From IMG/VR virus record IMGVR_UViG_2744054962_000001: 64,000 nucleotides of DNA. One strand, written 5' to 3'. The position numbers were made by a program, and so were the translations under genes. A model generated the notes under the pieces. That model was not told where the DNA came from, made no database searches, and worked only from the letters and a program-made list of their open reading frames with translations. Below, piece after piece: positions 1,606 through 64,000 of this stretch (position 1 is the first letter of the stretch; each line of letters opens with the position of its first letter). This stretch comes from a virus. Its lineage: Duplodnaviria; Heunggongvirae; Uroviricota; Caudoviricetes.

Positions 1606-1625
1606 TACTGTATGGATGAACAGTA
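1606..1625 (+). promoter_or_regulatory. LexA (SOS) box TACTGTATGGATGAACAGTA
   Basis: Fits TACTGT-N8-ACAGTA consensus; 18 nt upstream of ATG at 1644. Confidence 0.7.
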
Positions 1626-2046: not shown

Positions 2047-2071
2047 GCGGTGCAATGCACCGCCTTTTTAT
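2047..2071. terminator. Rho-independent terminator between convergent umuD-like and apbC
   Basis: Palindrome GGCGGTGCA-A-TGCACCGCC followed by TTTTTA. Confidence 0.65.
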
Positions 2072-3171
2072 CACACTGCGCGGAATGCGATTTCGCCAGG
2101 TATTACTTCACCTTGCCAATACATTTGGGCAGCAACGTGATCTGCGAGGTCACGATAAATAGCCGTAAATTCGCTATCTGGACGACTAATAACGGTTGGT
2201 GTTCCGTTATCCAGATCTTCACGAAGAGAGATATGAAGTGGCATTTGGCCTAACAACTGCGTGTTGTATTTCTCGGCCAGTTTCTGTGCGCCACCGGTGC
2301 CAAAAATTGGCTCGTGATGACCGCAGTTACTGCAAATATGCACACTCATGTTTTCGACGATACCCAGTACCGGCACTTCGACTTTTTCGAACATCACAAT
2401 GCCTTTCTTCGCATCGATCAGCGCGATGTCTTGCGGCGTAGTTACCACAACCGCACCAGTTACAGGAATGTTCTGCGCCAGCGTCAACTGAATATCACCA
2501 GTGCCCGGCGGCATATCGAGAACGAGATAGTCCAGATCAGGCCACAGTGTTTCCTGCAACATCTGCATCAGCGCCTTGCTGGCCATCGGTCCACGCCACA
2601 CCATCGCATTGTCGTCAGTGACCAGATAACCAATTGAATTGGTTGCCAGGCCATGAGACATGATAGGTGCCATGTGAGTACCGTCAGGTGAGGTTGGACG
2701 TTGGTTTTCCGCGCCCAGCATGGTTGGAATTGATGGCCCGTAGATATCGGCATCCAAAATACCAACTTTCGCACCTTCAGCCGCCAGCGCCAGCGCCAGG
2801 TTTACCGCCGTGGAGGATTTACCCACGCCGCCTTTACCGGAGCTGACCGCAATGATGTTCTTCACGCCATTAATGCCTGGTTGGTTTTTGACGCGCTTAA
2901 GCGTGGCAATGTTGTACGACAGCTTCCAGTCAATAGCCTTTGCGCCAGTGATACGGAGCAGATCACCACTACATTGCTCTTTCAGATCTTCAAAAGGCTT
3001 ATTCCACACGAAAGGCATGATTAGTTCGACATGCAGTGTGTCATCCATCAACGCAACATGGTGTAACGCTTTAAGCGTAGTCAGGTTGTGTTTCAGGGTT
3101 GGGTGCTGAAAATTAGCCAGCGTACCGGCTACCATTGCTCTCAGGGCATCCGGCGATTTGGACTCGCTCAT
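2071..3171 (-). CDS. apbC: Iron-sulfur cluster carrier ATPase ApbC/Mrp
   Basis: 366 aa; P-loop SSGKGGVGKSS; near-identity to enterobacterial Mrp as recalled; divergent from metG. Confidence 0.95.
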   Translation of the reverse strand: MSESKSPDALRAMVAGTLANFQHPTLKHNLTTLKALHHVALMDDTLHVELIMPFVWNKPFEDLKEQCSGDLLRITGAKAIDWKLSYNIATLKRVKNQPGINGVKNIIAVSSGKGGVGKSSTAVNLALALAAEGAKVGILDADIYGPSIPTMLGAENQRPTSPDGTHMAPIMSHGLATNSIGYLVTDDNAMVWRGPMASKALMQMLQETLWPDLDYLVLDMPPGTGDIQLTLAQNIPVTGAVVVTTPQDIALIDAKKGIVMFEKVEVPVLGIVENMSVHICSNCGHHEPIFGTGGAQKLAEKYNTQLLGQMPLHISLREDLDNGTPTVISRPDSEFTAIYRDLADHVAAQMYWQGEVIPGEIAFRAV

Positions 3172-3328
3172 CCCGTCTCCTTTATTTTAATTTGCGCAAT
3201 TGTCGCCTTGTAGTGTACTCCAGCTACGACATTTAATCATTTATGAGAAATGCTGTTATCACATGGCAGACATAAGGCCATTTTGTTACTATCAAGCCCC
3301 TTTTCACTACAAAGAAGTAATGCCTACT

Positions 3329-5362
3329 ATGACCCAAGTCGCGAAGAAAATTCTGGTGACGTGCGCGCTGCCGTACGCTAACGGCTCAATCCACCTCGGC
3401 CATATGCTGGAGCACATCCAGGCTGATGTCTGGGTTCGTTACCAGCGAATGCGCGGCCACGAGGTTAATTTCATCTGTGCCGACGATGCCCACGGTACGC
3501 CGATCATGCTGAAAGCGCAGCAGCTTGGTATCACACCGGAGCAGATGATTGGCGAAATGAGTCAGGAACACCAGACTGATTTCGCAGGCTTTAACATCAG
3601 CTATGACAACTATCACTCGACGCACAGCGAAGAGAACCGTCAGTTGTCTGAGCTTATCTATACTCGCCTGAAAGAGAACGGTTTTATTAAAAACCGCACT
3701 ATCTCTCAGTTGTACGACCCGGAAAAAGGCATGTTCCTGCCGGATCGTTTTGTAAAAGGCACCTGCCCGAAATGTAAAGCGCCAGATCAATACGGCGATA
3801 ACTGTGAAGTCTGCGGCGCAACATATAGCCCGACTGAATTGATCGAGCCGAAATCGGTGGTTTCTGGCGCTACCCCGGTAATGCGTGATTCCGAACACTT
3901 CTTCTTTGATCTGCCTTCTTTCAGCGAAATGTTGCAGGCATGGACCCGCAGCGGCGCGTTGCAGGAGCAGGTGGCGAACAAAATGCAGGAATGGTTTGAA
4001 TCCGGCCTGCAACAGTGGGATATCTCCCGAGATGCGCCTTACTTCGGTTTTGAAATTCCGAACGCGCCGGGCAAATATTTCTACGTCTGGCTGGACGCGC
4101 CGATTGGCTACATGGGTTCCTTCAAGAATCTGTGCGACAAGCGCGGCGATACCACCAGCTTCGATGAATACTGGAAGAAAGACTCCACCGCCGAGCTGTA
4201 CCACTTCATCGGTAAAGATATTGTTTACTTCCACAGCCTGTTCTGGCCTGCCATGCTGGAAGGCAGCAACTTCCGCAAGCCGACCAACCTGTTTGTTCAC
4301 GGCTATGTGACGGTGAACGGCGCGAAGATGTCCAAGTCTCGCGGCACCTTTATTAAAGCCAGCACCTGGCTGAATCATTTTGACGCCGACAGCCTGCGTT
4401 ACTACTACACTGCGAAACTCTCTTCGCGCATTGATGATATCGATCTCAACCTGGAGGATTTCGTTCAGCGCGTGAATGCCGATATCGTGAACAAAGTGGT
4501 TAACCTGGCCTCCCGTAATGCAGGCTTTATCAACAAGCGTTTTGACGGCGTGCTGGCAAGCGAACTGGCTGACCCGCAACTGTACAAAACCTTTACTGAT
4601 GCCGCTGAAGTGATTGGCGAAGCATGGGAAAGCCGCGAATTTGGTAAAGCTATCCGTGAAATCATGGCATTGGCTGACCTGGCTAACCGCTATGTCGATG
4701 AACAGGCTCCGTGGGTGGTGGCGAAGCAGGAAGGACGCGATGCCGATCTGCAGGCGATTTGCTCTATGGGCATTAACCTGTTCCGCGTGCTGATGACGTA
4801 CCTGAAGCCGGTACTGCCGAAACTGACTGAACGTGCAGAAGCATTCCTGAATACAGAACTGACCTGGGATGGTATCCAGCAACCGCTGCTGGGCCATAAA
4901 GTAAATCCGTTCAAGGCACTGTATAACCGCATCGATATGAAGCAGGTTGAAGCACTGGTGGAAGCATCCAAAGAAGAAGTGAAAGCCACAGCCGCACCGG
5001 TAACTGGCCCACTGGCTGACGACCCGATTCAGGAAACTATCACCTTTGACGACTTCGCCAAAGTTGACCTGCGCGTGGCGCTGATTGAAAACGCAGAGTT
5101 TGTAGAAGGTTCTGACAAACTGCTTCGCCTGACGCTGGATCTCGGTGGTGAAAAGCGTAATGTCTTCTCAGGCATCCGTTCCGCTTATCCAGATCCACAG
5201 GCACTGATTGGTCGTCACACCATTATGGTGGCTAACCTGGCACCACGTAAAATGCGCTTCGGTATCTCCGAAGGCATGGTGATGGCTGCTGGCCCTGGCG
5301 GAAAAGATATCTTCCTGTTAAGCCCGGATACCGGTGCTAAACCTGGCCACCAGGTTAAGTAA
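3329..5362 (+). CDS. metG: Methionyl-tRNA synthetase
   Basis: ORF track starts at 3200 but conserved N-terminus [25 protein letters not shown] begins at ATG 3329; 677 aa; C-terminal tRNA-binding domain present. Confidence 0.97.
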
Positions 5363-58840: not shown

Positions 58841-59039
58841 ACGGGAGAAGGAAACGCTTCATGAAATCAGTAAGTGGCCGGAGTTCCCTGAGTACTGGAA
58901 GCCTAAAACGCGAGCTAAGTTAGAGCGGTTAGGGTTGGTTGCAAACGTTTCTGAAACGAAGTGTTCGGCCAACTACCAGTTAACTGATAAAGGGAAAGTA
59001 TTGCTACAGCAATTAGTAGAATCAGGAGTGTTAAAATGA
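58824..59039 (+). CDS. Hypothetical protein (71 aa)
   Basis: AAGGAG RBS; overlaps 3' end of 58661..58840 in another frame. Confidence 0.45.
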   Translation: MIVLSKREKETLHEISKWPEFPEYWKPKTRAKLERLGLVANVSETKCSANYQLTDKGKVLLQQLVESGVLK

Positions 59040-59188
59040 TTCCATACATCTCATTAGCTTTTATGGGTGGCTTCCTTATCGGCTTCGGCATCTGTCGTGA
59101 TTTAATTAAGCAGGAACTTAAAACCAAAACACTGTGCATCGGAAAGCGTGTGTATCGGGTAGTTCATGAAACAAAGGTTAGAAAATGA
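59036..59188 (+). CDS. Small single-pass membrane protein (50 aa), paralogue of 58661..58840
   Basis: ATGA overlap with upstream stop; AGGAG RBS; TM helix then GKRVYRVVHET motif. Confidence 0.4.
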   Translation: MIPYISLAFMGGFLIGFGICRDLIKQELKTKTLCIGKRVYRVVHETKVRK

Positions 59189-59475
59189 GCAATTTAACTT
59201 CTTGGGACTGGTGGTTGGCCACCTATTTCTTAGCGGCCGGAGTCGCATTCGCCTTTTACGTAGGTCAGTTAGTCGTAAAACTGTTGCTGATTAAATTTGC
59301 CAGTCATAAACGTATCGATGATGGTCTGTGGCGTCTTGGCACCCTGGTGGAAACTCGCTACGGGCAACTTAAGGAGAACGAAACCATTACTATCCAAGCG
59401 AAACGATTCACTGCCACCATCACAAGAACACCTAGTCGTAGAGTGGCCTTGATCAAAAAAGTCACAACCGAATAA
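59185..59475 (+). CDS. Small membrane protein (96 aa)
   Basis: ATGA overlap with upstream gene; N-terminal TM helix. Confidence 0.45.
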   Translation: MSNLTSWDWWLATYFLAAGVAFAFYVGQLVVKLLLIKFASHKRIDDGLWRLGTLVETRYGQLKENETITIQAKRFTATITRTPSRRVALIKKVTTE

Positions 59476-59483
59476 AAACATAT

Positions 59484-59506
59484 CGATAAGTATTTACTTA
59501 CTTATC
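59484..59506 (+). promoter_or_regulatory. ATAAGTA-family motif (GATAAGTATTTACTTACTTATC)
   Basis: Palindromic copy at start of the non-coding leader that precedes the tRNA cluster. Confidence 0.45.
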
Positions 59507-59865
59507 CTTTGTGTATAAGATGACTTTGTTTTCGTTGAGACGCGACTGTTTGAACTTAAATACAAGTGCAAACGAAGAAGTCTATCTGGCAGTAGCCTAA
59601 TAAGCCAAACACCAGCGAGGTCAGTTTCCAGCCTCGTTACCGAAATGGGACACACTGAGCGAGTGTGATTGCAGAACGCAGGAGGGAACATTCATGTTCC
59701 CTCCGATGAAGTAACAGAATGGGCGGTTGGTATATTTTCAACTCCATATGACTCCCGGATTCTTAGCCACTGACCGCCCATCCTGTTACGTCATTTTGTT
59801 CAATTATGTCGTTTATACTGGGTTAAAAAGCGGCGACGTAGCCCGGCTGGTATGGTTAGCCAGCA

Positions 59866-59987
59866 CACAACGTTGAGGCCATTACATTTTTATCAATTCT
59901 AAGGTTCTATTCACAGAGATACCGGCGAGCGTTGATATGTAACATGTTGGGCAAACATTCAATCGGAGTAGTGGCCTCAACGTTGTG
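59866..59987. repeat. Perfect 16-bp inverted repeat pair (CACAACGTTGAGGCCA / TGGCCTCAACGTTGTG) separated by 90 nt
   Basis: Arms at 59866-59881 and 59972-59987 are exact reverse complements. Confidence 0.8.
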
Positions 59988-60253
59988 AAGACGGGATTGT
60001 TGTGTAGGTTTAACCACTGTTGCCATTGGTGCCTGTTTTCACAACAAATGATTCCATACATCACATTGTATAAATTACAAAGTAGGTGCTGTCCTCAGAA
60101 ACATCATCTACTTAAAGATTTTGCCTTCTACTATTGAGCGAAGTCGAAAGCGTCTGGCACTAACGAAAAGTGCAAGTAGCGGTGCGTTTCATGGCAGAAA
60201 CTAAACCGTCGCGATTGGCACTGTTGAGTAATAAATACTGGCAGTGCTGAATT

Positions 60254-60328
60254 GATGGTGTAGCTCAGCGGTAGAGCAGTTGGCTGTTAACCAACTGGTC
60301 GGTGGTTCGAATCCACCCACCATCGCCA
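60254..60328 (+). tRNA. tRNA-Asn (anticodon GTT)
   Basis: Cloverleaf: acceptor GATGGTG/CACCATC, D-arm GCTCAGCGGTAGAGC, anticodon loop CTGTTAA, T-loop TTCGAAT, encoded CCA. Confidence 0.85.
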
Positions 60329-60330
60329 AT

Positions 60331-60406
60331 GCCGGTTTAGCTCAGTTGGTAGAGCACCTGCCTTGTAAGCAGGATGTCAGCGGTTCGAATCCGTTAACCG
60401 GCACCA
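60331..60406 (+). tRNA. tRNA-Thr (anticodon TGT)
   Basis: Acceptor GCCGGTT/AACCGGC, anticodon stem CCTGC/GCAGG with loop CTTGTAA, T-loop TTCGAAT, encoded CCA. Confidence 0.85.
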
Positions 60407-60414
60407 ACACAATT

Positions 60415-60501
60415 GGAGAGTAGAGAGCATGGTGCTCAAGCGGTCTTGAAAGCCGTCCCATTGCGCAAGCGATGATGGTTCGATTCCATTACTCTCCGCC
60501 A
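60415..60501 (+). tRNA. tRNA-Ser (anticodon TGA), class II with long variable arm
   Basis: Acceptor GGAGAGT/ACTCTCC, anticodon loop CTTGAAA, variable arm with TTGCGCAA hairpin, T-loop TTCGATT, discriminator G plus CCA; anticodon stem has two G-U pairs. Confidence 0.65.
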
Positions 60502-60503
60502 GA

Positions 60504-60581
60504 CACAGCGTTGAGCGGTTTGGCCTATTAATCAACTCGATTAAGACTCCGCTAACATAAACCAGACCGCTCAACGCTGTG
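60504..60581. repeat. Perfect 16-bp inverted repeat (CACAGCGTTGAGCGGT / ACCGCTCAACGCTGTG) directly after tRNA-Ser
   Basis: Arms 60504-60519 and 60566-60581, 46-nt spacer; arm sequence related to the 59866 repeat. Confidence 0.8.
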
Positions 60582-60659
60582 ATAGACAATTACGGCAGAC
60601 GTTCTTAACCATAGCTTGCTAACATCATAGCAACACTTTTTTTCAGCGCAAAATTCAAA

Positions 60660-60679
60660 GGGGCTTCGGCCCCTTTTTT
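60660..60679 (+). terminator. Rho-independent terminator
   Basis: GGGGC-TTCG-GCCCC followed by TTTTTT. Confidence 0.75.
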
Positions 60680-60722
60680 GCAACTGAAAGAGTCAAGTCT
60701 ACGAACTTTGTAGGAAGAAATA

Positions 60723-61073
60723 ATGACCAGCAAAGAGAACACACCACTAAAAGTCACCTCTGAACACATTGAACAACTCATTCAAAGTGAACATTATTTC
60801 ACTGCATATGATGCCAGCCACGGGGATAACTTCATCTCTGTTTACAATTCAAAAACAGATATCGACAAAGGTCATGAGTCGTTAAAACTCTTAACGTTCT
60901 GCGTTATGGTTCTCAAAAATGGATATACCGTAACGGGAAAATCTGCGTGCGTAAGACCAGAAATCTTCAACTTTGATGTTGGTCGCGAGTACGCTCGAAA
61001 AGATGCTATCGATCAAATCTGGCCCCTGGAAGGCTATCTCCTGAAGCAAAAGTGGCATGAGGCAAAGCAATGA
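60723..61073 (+). CDS. Hypothetical protein (116 aa)
   Basis: ORF; ATGA overlap with downstream glutaredoxin-like gene. Confidence 0.5.
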   Translation: MTSKENTPLKVTSEHIEQLIQSEHYFTAYDASHGDNFISVYNSKTDIDKGHESLKLLTFCVMVLKNGYTVTGKSACVRPEIFNFDVGREYARKDAIDQIWPLEGYLLKQKWHEAKQ

Positions 61074-61315
61074 CGATCACTATCTACGGACGAGATAACT
61101 GCTCATACTGCAAACGTGCGGTCGAGCTGGCGAAGCAACTAAAGGGACATGGCTACGGTGATTATGAGTACATCGACATCACCACTGCCGGTATCGATAA
61201 GGAAAAACTTAGCGAAATTGTTGGAAAACCGGTAGAGACTATCCCCCAGGTGCTGATCGATGGCCAGCCGATTGGCGGATACACAGAGATGGCATCTTTC
61301 GTAAGTTTCTTATAA
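61070..61315 (+). CDS. Glutaredoxin-like protein (NrdH/Grx fold)
   Basis: 81 aa; redox motif CSYC near N-terminus; thioredoxin-fold length. Confidence 0.7.
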   Translation: MTITIYGRDNCSYCKRAVELAKQLKGHGYGDYEYIDITTAGIDKEKLSEIVGKPVETIPQVLIDGQPIGGYTEMASFVSFL

Positions 61316-61352
61316 GTAAAGGCCACATCTTTGTATATATAGTACATATAAC

Positions 61353-61377
61353 AAAAAAGGCCCATATGGGCCTTTTT
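61353..61377. terminator. Bidirectional rho-independent terminator
   Basis: AAAAAA-GGCCC-ATAT-GGGCC-TTTTT. Confidence 0.7.
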
Positions 61378-61499
61378 CATAACTTCTAGCTAATCACTAC
61401 AGAGGCTTAAAGACCACTTCACCCTTGCGTTCAGCTTCAGCTTTAGCAGTCATGAATCGTTTGATCATTTCGACTTTGCTAGCATGGATAGTTTTAAAA

Positions 61500-62054
61500 T
61501 CAATCTTCCCTTTGTTTTGGGTAGTGTTGTGTTCGTATCGCATAGGAAGCTCCGTCATTTAAATAAGTTAGGCCACGCTCTTGTGTAAATCTCTTCACAT
61601 ATCTCTTGTATGTGGCCATCAGTTCTTCGCGTTCTGCCGCAAAGAATAAAATCTGTATGCCTTCATTGTCGGCAACTTTGAGCATTAAGTCAACTAAAGT
61701 ACCGTAAAGGTATTGAAGTTCACCTAAAGTAAGATTAAAAGACCCTTCGGGTTTGGCAAATACGTTAATTGGCTCTTCCGCTCCAAGAGCAGCATTCTGG
61801 AGCTGTTCTTGCTGCCTGTCAAGTTGAATCATGTCCACAAAACTAACGACAGATACACACAACCCATAAACATCAGCACCTAACATATTATGCATAGTTT
61901 CTGCGGCAACAGGATCTAAAGAAGGAGGGCAAAAGACTAAACGGTATCTAGCCTTACGAGCTTCATTGCCAGAGAAAACAAAGTCTATATCTAAATATGA
62001 CAGATCACCCGGCAATGAAGCCAAACCAGGTGTAACCAACTTATGCAAGTGCAT
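61500..62054 (-). CDS. Hypothetical protein (184 aa)
   Basis: ORF divergent from integrase; no motif recognised. Confidence 0.5.
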   Translation of the reverse strand: MHLHKLVTPGLASLPGDLSYLDIDFVFSGNEARKARYRLVFCPPSLDPVAAETMHNMLGADVYGLCVSVVSFVDMIQLDRQQEQLQNAALGAEEPINVFAKPEGSFNLTLGELQYLYGTLVDLMLKVADNEGIQILFFAAEREELMATYKRYVKRFTQERGLTYLNDGASYAIRTQHYPKQRED

Positions 62055-62275
62055 CTGTCTCGAATCCCTCTTTATTAGTATAAGTTGTCTTATTGTACCC
62101 TACCAAACGTTTATATGCATTGTTATGTATTATTTTGATTTTCAATATTACCTCCTAGAACGAAGGGTAGATTTCAAAAAACGCATCCTTAATGATTCCA
62201 TACCTACTATGTATGGAATCATTGCCGAAAATGAGTTACTTTTACTCTTGATCCTATAAGAATCTATGCCTAATA

Positions 62276-62295
62276 TACTGTTTACTTATACAGTA
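62276..62295. promoter_or_regulatory. LexA-box-like site TACTGTTTACTTATACAGTA
   Basis: Fits TACTGT-N8-ACAGTA; 26 nt upstream of integrase ATG, in divergent promoter region. Confidence 0.5.
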
Positions 62296-62321
62296 CATCG
62301 GCGTAACTCGGTGATTGTCAT

Positions 62322-63425
62322 ATGAAAAATAGCTTTGACAGAGCACGCGCTGCGGAGAACACCTCAAAAGAGGCGATTGAGTATCTCGAAAGAGCATCTC
62401 AAATGCAGGCCGTTATGATCTCCCAGGTCAGCAATGACATGAGATTCTCGGACGCATTCATGTTATTCACTCGCTTATCTCTGCTGATAACCAGACGTCG
62501 GCCAGAGATCGCTGTTCATTGTATTTTGATACATGTTTTGCCGCACATTGCCGATGTAAAAGTAAGTGACATTAATAGGTTCATGGTGAACCAACTGGTC
62601 AACCCACTAATACTGGATGGCAAAATTGTTATGGGCCGCCGCGTTTTCTCTCTGATGAAGCAGTTCCTTAGCTGGTGCGCCTTCCAGGGGATGATAGACG
62701 TGTCACCGTTAAACGATATGTCACTTAACAAAGTTGCCGGTGGCGCAAAGCCCACACCTCGCGAGCGGAAGCTGACCGACGCAGAGGTATGGGTGTTCTG
62801 GAATATATGGGACTACTTCAATGTGTGTGCTGGTACAAAATGGGCGGCCAGGCTATGTCTTGTATCCGCAAGACGACCTGACGAAGTACTGCGGGCTAAA
62901 AAAAGTGAGTTCAATCTTAAGCGTGGGGTTTGGAATCAAGGCAAGAGGAACAAATCTGCCCGTGAGCATTCTCTGCCTTTAAGCTCATTAATGCGCACTT
63001 GTATTGAAGAGTTGTTCGAATATGGTAAAGACAGCCAGTGGCTCGTGCCTTCGAATAAAAAAATCGGGAAAGACCTTCCTATGTCTAAAGTGGCAATAGC
63101 CCAGGCATTACGTCGTATTCTGGAACGACCAGAACTGATGGAGCTTGAGCCATTTACACCCCGAGATTTGCGCCGTACTGCGCGTAGTTACTTCCCAGCA
63201 TTAGGCATAAGCCAGGAGGTATCACGTAAAATCATGAACCACAGTCTTGAGGGGATAGATCGGGTCTACGACCGGCACGATTATATGGACGAGATGCGAG
63301 ACGCCTTAGAAAGTTTCTCGACGTACATCGCATCAATCGTAGAGCAACCGGATTTAGACGAAATTGACCACAAATTCAAGGGAGATCGTCTATCAACAGA
63401 GCTTATTCGTGTAAATTTTTCATAG
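62322..63425 (+). CDS. int: Tyrosine recombinase / phage integrase
   Basis: C-terminal catalytic region with conserved Arg, RDLRRT and VYDRHDY tyrosine segment; N-terminal ~60 aa atypical, start uncertain. Confidence 0.7.
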   Translation: MKNSFDRARAAENTSKEAIEYLERASQMQAVMISQVSNDMRFSDAFMLFTRLSLLITRRRPEIAVHCILIHVLPHIADVKVSDINRFMVNQLVNPLILDGKIVMGRRVFSLMKQFLSWCAFQGMIDVSPLNDMSLNKVAGGAKPTPRERKLTDAEVWVFWNIWDYFNVCAGTKWAARLCLVSARRPDEVLRAKKSEFNLKRGVWNQGKRNKSAREHSLPLSSLMRTCIEELFEYGKDSQWLVPSNKKIGKDLPMSKVAIAQALRRILERPELMELEPFTPRDLRRTARSYFPALGISQEVSRKIMNHSLEGIDRVYDRHDYMDEMRDALESFSTYIASIVEQPDLDEIDHKFKGDRLSTELIRVNFS

Positions 63426-63806
63426 AGACTTTATGGCCTCAACAACCTTTTGTGATGCGCCTTTCTCTTTACCGAATCGCTCGTTATATGCAGCAAGAAC
63501 CTGTTTTTCGTCCTCGTTAAGAGGAGCAGTGCCTTCTTTGTATAAAAATGCTGCGAGTTCGGGTTGGCGTTCTTCCAGCACCATCATCATAAGACGACTT
63601 GGCTCAATACCCAGTGCCAGCGCCAGCGGACGAACCTTATCGATAGGCAAAGGAATTTTGCCGCTTTTAATTAAAGAAAGGTTGTTGGCGTTTTTATACC
63701 CAATTGTTTTGGCTATCTGGGCCTGGCTCATAGGTGAGGATTCAATCAACCCTGCGATAAAAGCAGCGTAGCGACTTTCTATAAATTCAATCTTGTTATC
63801 AGACAT
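63420..63806 (-). CDS. XRE-family HTH transcriptional regulator (repressor-like)
   Basis: HTH segment SQAQIAKTIGYKNANNLSLIKSG; convergent with integrase, overlapping by 6 nt. Confidence 0.7.
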   Translation of the reverse strand: MSDNKIEFIESRYAAFIAGLIESSPMSQAQIAKTIGYKNANNLSLIKSGKIPLPIDKVRPLALALGIEPSRLMMMVLEERQPELAAFLYKEGTAPLNEDEKQVLAAYNERFGKEKGASQKVVEAIKSL

Positions 63807-64000
63807 GGTTACAACCTTTGCGCGTTCAATTCTCTCTGGTAAGTGCTTACCGATATTACATCAAAGGTTATGGTTGTAAAGCTATTATCATTTTTTTCGA
63901 TAGGCACTTAAAAGACCGGTTAAAGGCCATTGCACGGAGAAAAATTAGCCAAAAATAGGTAAGAAAATCAACTTGCATATGATATGAATGTATTCAGTAT

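Follow-up and report, generated by a model that had tools for sequence, protein, structure and literature searches.

The DNA analysed here, called the window below, is a 64,000-nucleotide (nt) stretch of a virus of the class Caudoviricetes (IMG/VR record IMGVR_UViG_2744054962_000001). Close to one of its ends lies a gene for a tyrosine recombinase, labelled ‘integrase’ in public records, and just upstream of it stands a palindrome that an initial annotation had read as a binding site for the host SOS repressor LexA. A divergent cargo gene and a perfect inverted repeat precede the palindrome, and a gene for a small helix-turn-helix (HTH) regulator is convergent with the recombinase gene (Table 1). 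Region 61300-64000, which covers this locus, matched the E. coli plasmid pEC7518-111k (NZ_CP085184.1) at 100% identity; its identity to Escherichia phage Cyrano, an SSU5-like phage-plasmid of strain LF82, was 98.6%. The window belongs to an SSU5/pSLy3-type phage-plasmid. Related DNA was found in 252 of 5,426 complete E. coli genomes, at 254 places, all of them on plasmids of ~105-115 kb and none (0/254) on a chromosome.

The palindrome was found at the position and with the sequence first reported. It reads TACTGT-TTACTTAT-ACAGTA, a perfect 6-bp inverted repeat that includes the CTGT-N8-ACAG core, and 26 nt separate it from the recombinase ATG at 62322. The initial annotation had expected the core alone about once by chance in a window of this size and had rested its case on the extended form. 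The core occurred four times against a computed expectation of 0.76, a count reached by none of 100 shuffled sequences, and the extended form TACTGT-N8-ACAGTA occurred twice against an expectation of 0.01, the other copy being at 1606-1625. The whole window was scanned with an approximate LexA position weight matrix, made from 28 literature operators of E. coli. At 22.9 bits, the box upstream of the recombinase gene was the maximum of the window and fell in the upper half of the training operators (12.5-25.4 bits, median 19.4). None of 200 Markov-1 random 64-kb sequences matched this score, and their maximum was 19.8 bits. Of the 16 positions of the published consensus CTGTatatatatACAG (PMC3108266), the box matches 13, and the three mismatches are all in the spacer. 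No score above 14.5 bits was obtained in the remaining 47 kb of the plasmid (~111 kb in all), which leaves the element with two strong LexA boxes only, at the recombinase promoter and at humD. A LexA-like sequence of 14.5 bits, AGCTGTATATATCCACTGTA, was seen in the intergenic region before repA (L004:28732-28751; NZ_CP085184.1, ~111231); its right half has CTG rather than CAG, and it is therefore probably nonfunctional.

The predicted, conserved promoter elements of the recombinase gene adjoin the box directly. In an alignment of 19 diverse relatives, TTGATC-N17-TAATAT were the only conserved plus-strand promoter-like elements, and the pair was also the top plus-strand candidate in a lenient promoter scan. 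The box was assigned to the recombinase promoter because the conserved -10 hexamer runs into it, because the best leftward promoter-like site (62106-62077) lies ~170 bp from it, and because the divergent gene sits in a variable slot. The same arrangement was found in a K. michiganensis-type locus (L082) with a recombinase 59% identical to that of the window, where TTGACC-N17-TTAAAT is followed directly by TACTGTTTATTCATACAGTG. Judged from this layout, the box would belong to the recombinase promoter and lie over the expected transcription start, the classic position for repression. The proposal that a LexA box is placed to repress the integrase promoter was thus supported, both by its high score and by its conservation in orthologous promoters.

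Table 1. Coordinates of the recombinase locus and of the second LexA box in the 64,000-nt window.
Feature	Position	Strand	Remarks
Predicted LexA operator (SOS box) TACTGTTTACTTATACAGTA	62276..62295	.	sequence read, top matrix score, conservation
Predicted -35 hexamer TTGATC	62248..62253	+	best plus-strand promoter-like pair; TTGAT nearly invariant among the 19 diverse relatives aligned
Predicted -10 hexamer TAATAT	62271..62276	+	its final T is also position 1 of the LexA box
Shine-Dalgarno-like GGTGA	62310..62314	+	7 nt before the ATG; predicted from sequence
Tyrosine recombinase (‘integrase’, 367 amino acids)	62322..63425	+	Pfam Phage_integrase and Phage_int_M
13-7-13 inverted repeat AATGATTCCATAC-CTACTAT-GTATGGAATCATT	62191..62223	.	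putative cognate lox-like site
HTH regulator, 128 amino acids (Cyrano ‘putative repressor’ CYRAN_45)	63420..63806	-	convergent with the recombinase gene, 6-nt overlap (63420-63425)
Divergent cargo gene (phrog_28788)	61500..62054	-	in the variable slot; not the target of the box
Second LexA box TACTGTATGGATGAACAGTA	1606..1625	.	20.0 bits, second in the window; internal positive control

Conservation of the box was followed in loci from IMG/VR and GTDB genomes with recombinases 84-100% identical, of which the 74 with an E. coli-type 13-7-13 inverted repeat were counted. A box of at least 19 bits was present in 71 of these, 24-29 nt from the ATG. Among the 16 distinct variants, positions 3-5 (CTG) and 16-18 (CAG) were invariant, and variation fell at positions 7-8, 10-12, 1 and 19-20. 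These were uncompensated, as in TACTGG...ACAGGT and CACTGT...ACAGTA. Fixed CTG and CAG triplets, a free centre and uncompensated outer changes therefore make up the signature of a LexA operator and not that of an RNA stem. Over the recombinase family as a whole, predicted LexA control is common but patchy. A LexA-like sequence in another position, CACTGTACAAATACTCAGTA (17.4 bits), was observed in a Nissabacter-type locus with no promoter box (L081:3977-3996), within the 3' part of the recombinase gene and close to the convergent HTH gene.

The second box of the window served as an internal positive control. It is followed after 18 nt by a HumD-family gene (UmuD'-like, S24 peptidase) at 1644-2033, which matched the HumD equivalog model with 217.7 bits. 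humD is a classic SOS-type gene. In Cyrano, a counterpart of this box, TACTGTATGTGTATACAGTA, occupies the same place upstream of the humD homologue CYRAN_98. The humD box shows that the element already links genes to the host SOS regulon. The UmuD'-like humD of phage P1 is comparable in that the element studied here has a HumD equivalog closely preceded by a strong LexA box; it is a gene of other function than the recombinase, and the comparison extends to the control only.

Expression of these genes in strain LF82 carrying Cyrano was taken from published RNA sequencing (RNA-seq) values, given as log2 of fragments per kilobase per million (PMC9928086, S1 Table). The recombinase gene CYRAN_44, with the box TACTGTTTACTTATACAGTG at its promoter, stood at ~5.6 in lysogeny broth, 6.1 after 6 h in medium, 8.9 after 1 h in macrophages and 10.3 after 6 h in macrophages, thus ~19-fold higher in macrophages than in medium. 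The humD homologue CYRAN_98 rose in parallel, with values of 7.2, 9.1, 11.3 and 12.2 in the same order. The macrophage setting is regarded as genotoxic by the authors of that study (PMC9928086). The orthologue of the divergent gene, CYRAN_43, was at 13-15 in all conditions, ~700-fold over background in unstressed cells, with no rise in macrophages (PMC9928086); LexA therefore does not repress CYRAN_43. Production of Cyrano virions was raised 39-fold by ciprofloxacin, and no virions above background were obtained in macrophages (PMC9928086). The RNA-seq values are consistent with LexA control of the recombinase and are no proof of it.

On this evidence, we consider it likely that the box is a genuine operator of the host LexA on the recombinase promoter. 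The predicted operator is probably functional in LexA control, and the recombinase is most likely turned on by the SOS response. From the position and the conservation of the box, we hypothesize that a bound LexA dimer would block initiation at the recombinase promoter, and that RecA-stimulated cleavage of LexA during the SOS response would release transcription. More recombinase under SOS conditions would in turn lead to more recombination at the adjacent repeat. The net logic would resemble that of integrons, with site-specific recombination kept low in unstressed cells and raised with DNA damage and RecA activity. A LexA box on the promoter of a tyrosine recombinase is already established for integrons; what is new is its presence on this recombinase. 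Literature searches found no earlier description of LexA in connection with this recombinase or with SSU5/pMT1-type phage-plasmids.

The recombinase consists of a catalytic domain and a central core-binding domain, and no arm-binding domain was recognized with Pfam. No IntI, Xer or Cre family model matched it in NCBIfam or Pfam, where beyond Phage_integrase a weak match to PRK09692 was obtained. In an alignment of 16 sequences reaching down to 43% identity, R184/R185, K211, R281, R284 and Y316 were invariant, and H307 was kept in 14 of them, with Gln in the other two. R281 is an invariant Arg in place of the usual second His. Type IB topoisomerases have a Lys at this His-II position, and catalysis is therefore compatible with a basic residue. 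An AlphaFold model of the protein reached a predicted local distance difference test (pLDDT) score of 81.7. Its nearest structures by Foldseek were residues 75-356 of lambda Int (E 4e-7), followed by Tn1549 Int and Xer proteins. The integron integrase VchIntIA (2a3v) came up at E ~1e-3 and Cre chains at E 0.08-0.8; Cre and the recombinase-fold repressors MrpR and SroF ranked far lower than lambda Int. A sequence search of the PDB gave no match, and the nearest sequence relatives beyond the recombinase's own family were arm-domain integrases of ~30% identity. Homologues were found throughout Enterobacterales; most lie on contigs of ~100-120 kb with a shared order of cargo, recombinase, convergent small HTH gene, an open reading frame (ORF) of 70 amino acids and a cobT-like gene. 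We conclude that the protein is an enzyme of the lambda Int fold and not a chromosomal integrase.

A probable site of action was found close to the gene. The perfect 13-7-13 repeat ends 98 nt upstream of the recombinase ATG. All close relatives share the same arms, and the 7-bp spacer varies by lineage. Down to 47% identity, each member of the family has an equivalent repeat in front of its gene. The spacer is 7 bp long in every case, and the arms differ in step with the protein (TGTGATTCCATAC in K. michiganensis; TGACTCCAGAC in Xenorhabdus and Pantoea). The repeat even accompanies the gene on a 507-kb Pantoea vagans replicon, which has neither the HTH gene nor phage genes. A single full copy is present on pEC7518-111k. 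An operator of the HTH regulator was considered as an explanation of the repeat and found unlikely, because the repeat follows the recombinase to the HTH-less Pantoea megaplasmid and because its arms co-vary with the recombinase. The repeat is probably the lox-like core site of the recombinase. Four traits indicate a lox-like system: a simple core site, a protein devoid of an arm domain, one site per replicon and no chromosomal copy. In two Buttiauxella-type loci (L008 and L071, 2873-2905) the spacer reads TTAATAG, inverted relative to the CTATTAA of their nearest relatives.

The recombinase would act on this single repeat, ~100 bp upstream of its own start codon, and would recombine copies of the element or resolve its multimers there, as Cre does at loxP in P1. 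Multimer resolution, or another recombination of element copies at the repeat, is its most likely job; we hold this role with less confidence than the assignment of the operator. The resolution of dimers has been named as a possible general use of phage-plasmid recombinases (Pfeifer et al. 2021, PMC7969092). Besides the full repeat, isolated exact copies of an arm were found that share a 3' extension, (A)TGATTCCATACATC. Two of them lie on the plus strand of the window (59036-59049 and 60048-60061), and further single copies are at L003:14668, inside dnaE, and at L059:658 and L059:1678. In two distant lineages the motif is situated inside the recombinase gene (L078:3607 and L082:3607). It is shared by E. 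coli and Klebsiella elements at corresponding places. No inverted partner was found for these isolated half-sites, and degenerate partner arms were not above random expectation. They might represent scars or sites bound by a monomer.

Several observations weigh against the interpretation given so far, in part or as a whole. The LexA matrix is approximate, and the two predicted promoter hexamers match their consensus at 8 of 12 positions, which is under the default threshold of the promoter scanner. The two Buttiauxella-type loci have a degenerate box, TGCTGATGATGTATACAGAA at 2956-2975, with 12.3 bits. The box is absent in four lineages with recombinases of 47-60% identity (L078, L081, L083 and L084) and present in the K. 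michiganensis-type locus of 59%; the recombinase can therefore fulfil its basic function without LexA control. Many further Cyrano transcripts increase in macrophages, which makes the RNA-seq pattern unspecific for LexA. As for the role of the enzyme, the rationale for SOS repression of a dimer resolvase is not obvious, and a simple lox-like model leaves the isolated half-sites unaccounted for.

Two neighbours of the recombinase gene bear on how the locus may be read. The HTH protein has an HTH domain only and no S24 autocleavage domain. Its gene and the recombinase gene co-occur in all nine phage records that have either, and their convergent, abutting or overlapping layout was present in all phage-plasmid relatives examined. 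The only plus-strand terminator-like hairpin (63646-63662) lies inside the HTH gene, and none lies between the two genes. On the other side, the divergent cargo gene occupies a variable slot, bounded by the grxA terminator and the 13-7-13 repeat (~61316-62190 in the window, with equivalents in L005-L083). No function was assigned to this gene by PADLOC and NCBIfam searches. Its slot content is missing from most relatives, and at least 17 unrelated contents were counted in ~70 loci. The commonest state in E. coli is ‘empty’ (~80 nt); other loci hold toxin-antitoxin pairs, and the slot is filled by a colicin/pyocin DNase and its immunity gene in Xenorhabdus (L083) and by caf1, the F1 capsule gene, in a Y. 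pestis contig (L006). The left edge of the cargo, which follows the grxA terminator, showed no second site, attC-like element or conserved motif; the isolated half-sites lie elsewhere. Between the window and Buttiauxella, identity was roughly uniform over the cargo and recombinase genes, which is uninformative on a breakpoint.

A perfect 6-bp inverted repeat could suit any dimeric protein or an RNA fold, and the palindrome might accordingly be a chance sequence, a site for the HTH regulator or the recombinase, or a hairpin in the 5' untranslated region. This is very improbable. Only ~0.01 such sequences are expected per window by chance, the positions kept through the 16 variants are the CTG and CAG critical to LexA, and the hairpin was rejected since CTG and CAG do not vary and substitutions in the outer stem have no compensating partner. 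Moreover, the recombinase's own repeat differs in sequence, and the box is still LexA-like in Klebsiella, where the HTH regulator is down to 56% identity. Extremely improbable, in our view, is the version of the initial annotation, a LexA operator that governs an integrated prophage's excision or integration, or the divergent gene. For it speak the ‘integrase’ label in public records and the place of the box within the shared divergent intergenic region. The element is extrachromosomal, with 254 of 254 E. coli places on plasmids, the full, unsplit 13-7-13 repeat stands beside the gene in every locus, the protein is devoid of an arm-binding domain, and no xis gene is nearby. Coupling to excision was accordingly not supported. 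The divergent gene was likewise rejected as a target, since its promoter is ~170 bp away, it belongs to a variable slot and CYRAN_43 is expressed constitutively at a very high level. Of the suggestion that SOS input could reach the element without a CI-type autocleaving repressor, the part about excision is not supported and the rest is plausible, given a 128-amino-acid HTH protein that lacks S24 and the 39-fold response of Cyrano to ciprofloxacin.

That plausible part could be taken further, with the LexA-gated promoter as the SOS input for prophage induction. Read-through into the HTH repressor gene, by transcriptional interference or antisense RNA, would lower the repressor and lead to lysis; alternatively, the recombinase protein would act on the switch. 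Besides the ciprofloxacin response, this agrees with a putative repressor that cannot cleave itself, with an element that has two strong boxes only and no LexA-boxed antirepressor, with the constant company and convergence of the recombinase and HTH genes, and with the missing terminator between them. We nevertheless regard it as unlikely, because the recombinase transcript rises ~19-fold in macrophages where virions stay at background, because apparent HTH-gene reads, which may not be strand-specific, rise there as well, because lineages with no box share the convergent layout, and because the HTH protein is a master repressor by annotation only. With the same low probability, the promoter would be the missing SOS sensor of SSU5/pSLy3/pMT1-type phage-plasmids, working through a convergent transcript or through the recombinase at the 13-7-13 repeat and the dispersed half-sites; if so, induction would need no antirepressor and no repressor that cleaves itself. 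An integron-like cargo platform, in which the SOS-induced recombinase captures or exchanges accessory genes at the 13-7-13 repeat, is suggested by the many unrelated slot contents adjoining it (at least 17 in ~70 loci), by a recombinase gene that diverges from the cargo under a LexA-boxed promoter as in integrons, and by the inverted Buttiauxella-type spacer, which implies past recombination at the site. It seems quite improbable. The protein is not of the IntI type and its fold is nearest lambda Int, the cargo has no second or attC-like site at its left edge, and weak homology extends ~25-30 nt to the left of the repeat, which puts the breakpoint not exactly at the site. The cargo genes of the window and Buttiauxella are also about as diverged as the recombinase gene, so that no recent swapping is seen, and variable ‘moron’ slots after terminators are frequent in phages that have no dedicated recombinase.

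The preferred reading, a LexA operator on the promoter of a lox-like recombinase, shares traits with several known systems. In integrons, a LexA box overlaps the -10 hexamer of the integrase promoter Pint, as in class 1 intI1 and V. cholerae intIA (Guerin 2009, Cambray 2011, PMC3108266), and LexA control is widespread among integron integrases and lost in some lineages (PMC3108266). The locus studied here resembles Pint in a gammaproteobacterial LexA box placed partly over the predicted -10 hexamer of a tyrosine recombinase promoter, with the probable recombination site just upstream; in both families, variable cargo diverges from the recombinase gene and LexA control is patchy. This layout would be a likeness in working and is no evidence of membership. 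Unlike in integrons, no IntI family match was found here and the fold is nearest lambda Int, a double-stranded 13-7-13 palindrome takes the place of attI/attC, no cassette boundaries occur and the host replicon is a phage-plasmid. The Cre/loxP system of P1 is likewise that of a plasmid-prophage, with a single tyrosine recombinase lacking an arm-binding domain and with 13-bp inverted arms around a short asymmetric spacer, near the gene and once per replicon. It differs in that Cre has no sequence similarity to this recombinase, is a poor structural match (Foldseek E ~0.1) and acts on a spacer of 8 bp rather than 7 bp. The cre gene is not known to be regulated by LexA.

LexA-controlled antirepressors (N15 antC, 186 tum, Gifsy) provide a third comparison: they too belong to SOS-inducible temperate elements with a non-self-cleaving repressor, and in each case damage would be sensed through a box for the host LexA in a phage promoter. 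Here, by contrast, a 367-amino-acid recombinase with intact catalytic residues stands behind the box, with no ORF in between. Lambda Int and P4-type integrases offer the closest solved fold (core-binding plus catalytic domains) and a core site of the 7-bp overlap type, whereas this protein lacks their N-terminal arm-binding domain and has an Arg (R281) at His-II, and its extrachromosomal element has no xis gene and no chromosomal att sites.

Elsewhere, the window carries phage replication genes, a tRNA cluster, grxA, plasmid-borne metG and apbC and the humD-like gene. At 2071-5362, copies of apbC/mrp and metG (methionyl-tRNA synthetase) stand beside humD and a gene for a type I restriction-modification subunit, and this block is common to many E. 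coli plasmids of the SSU5/pSLy3 type. The ~770 nt that precede the tRNA-Asn/Thr/Ser cluster (59480-60250) have no convincing ORF and hold two long imperfect inverted repeats (59706-59794 and 59866-59987) with no Rfam match; a scan of 59300-64000 against Rfam returned tRNAs only.

Phage-plasmids of the SSU5/pSLy3/pKpn/pMT1 type are frequent in clinical Enterobacterales, where they carry toxins, resistance genes and virulence genes as cargo, and the same family includes a ~108-kb replicon of Y. pestis with caf1. No description of DNA-damage sensing in these elements, or of the role of their conserved recombinase, was found in the literature searched. The probable recombination site identified here is what experimental or engineering use of the enzyme would need. 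The conserved LexA operator would link the SOS response induced by antibiotics to recombination in SSU5/pSLy3-type elements, and possibly to their induction. It would thereby extend the integron paradigm of SOS-gated site-specific recombination to another family of recombinases.

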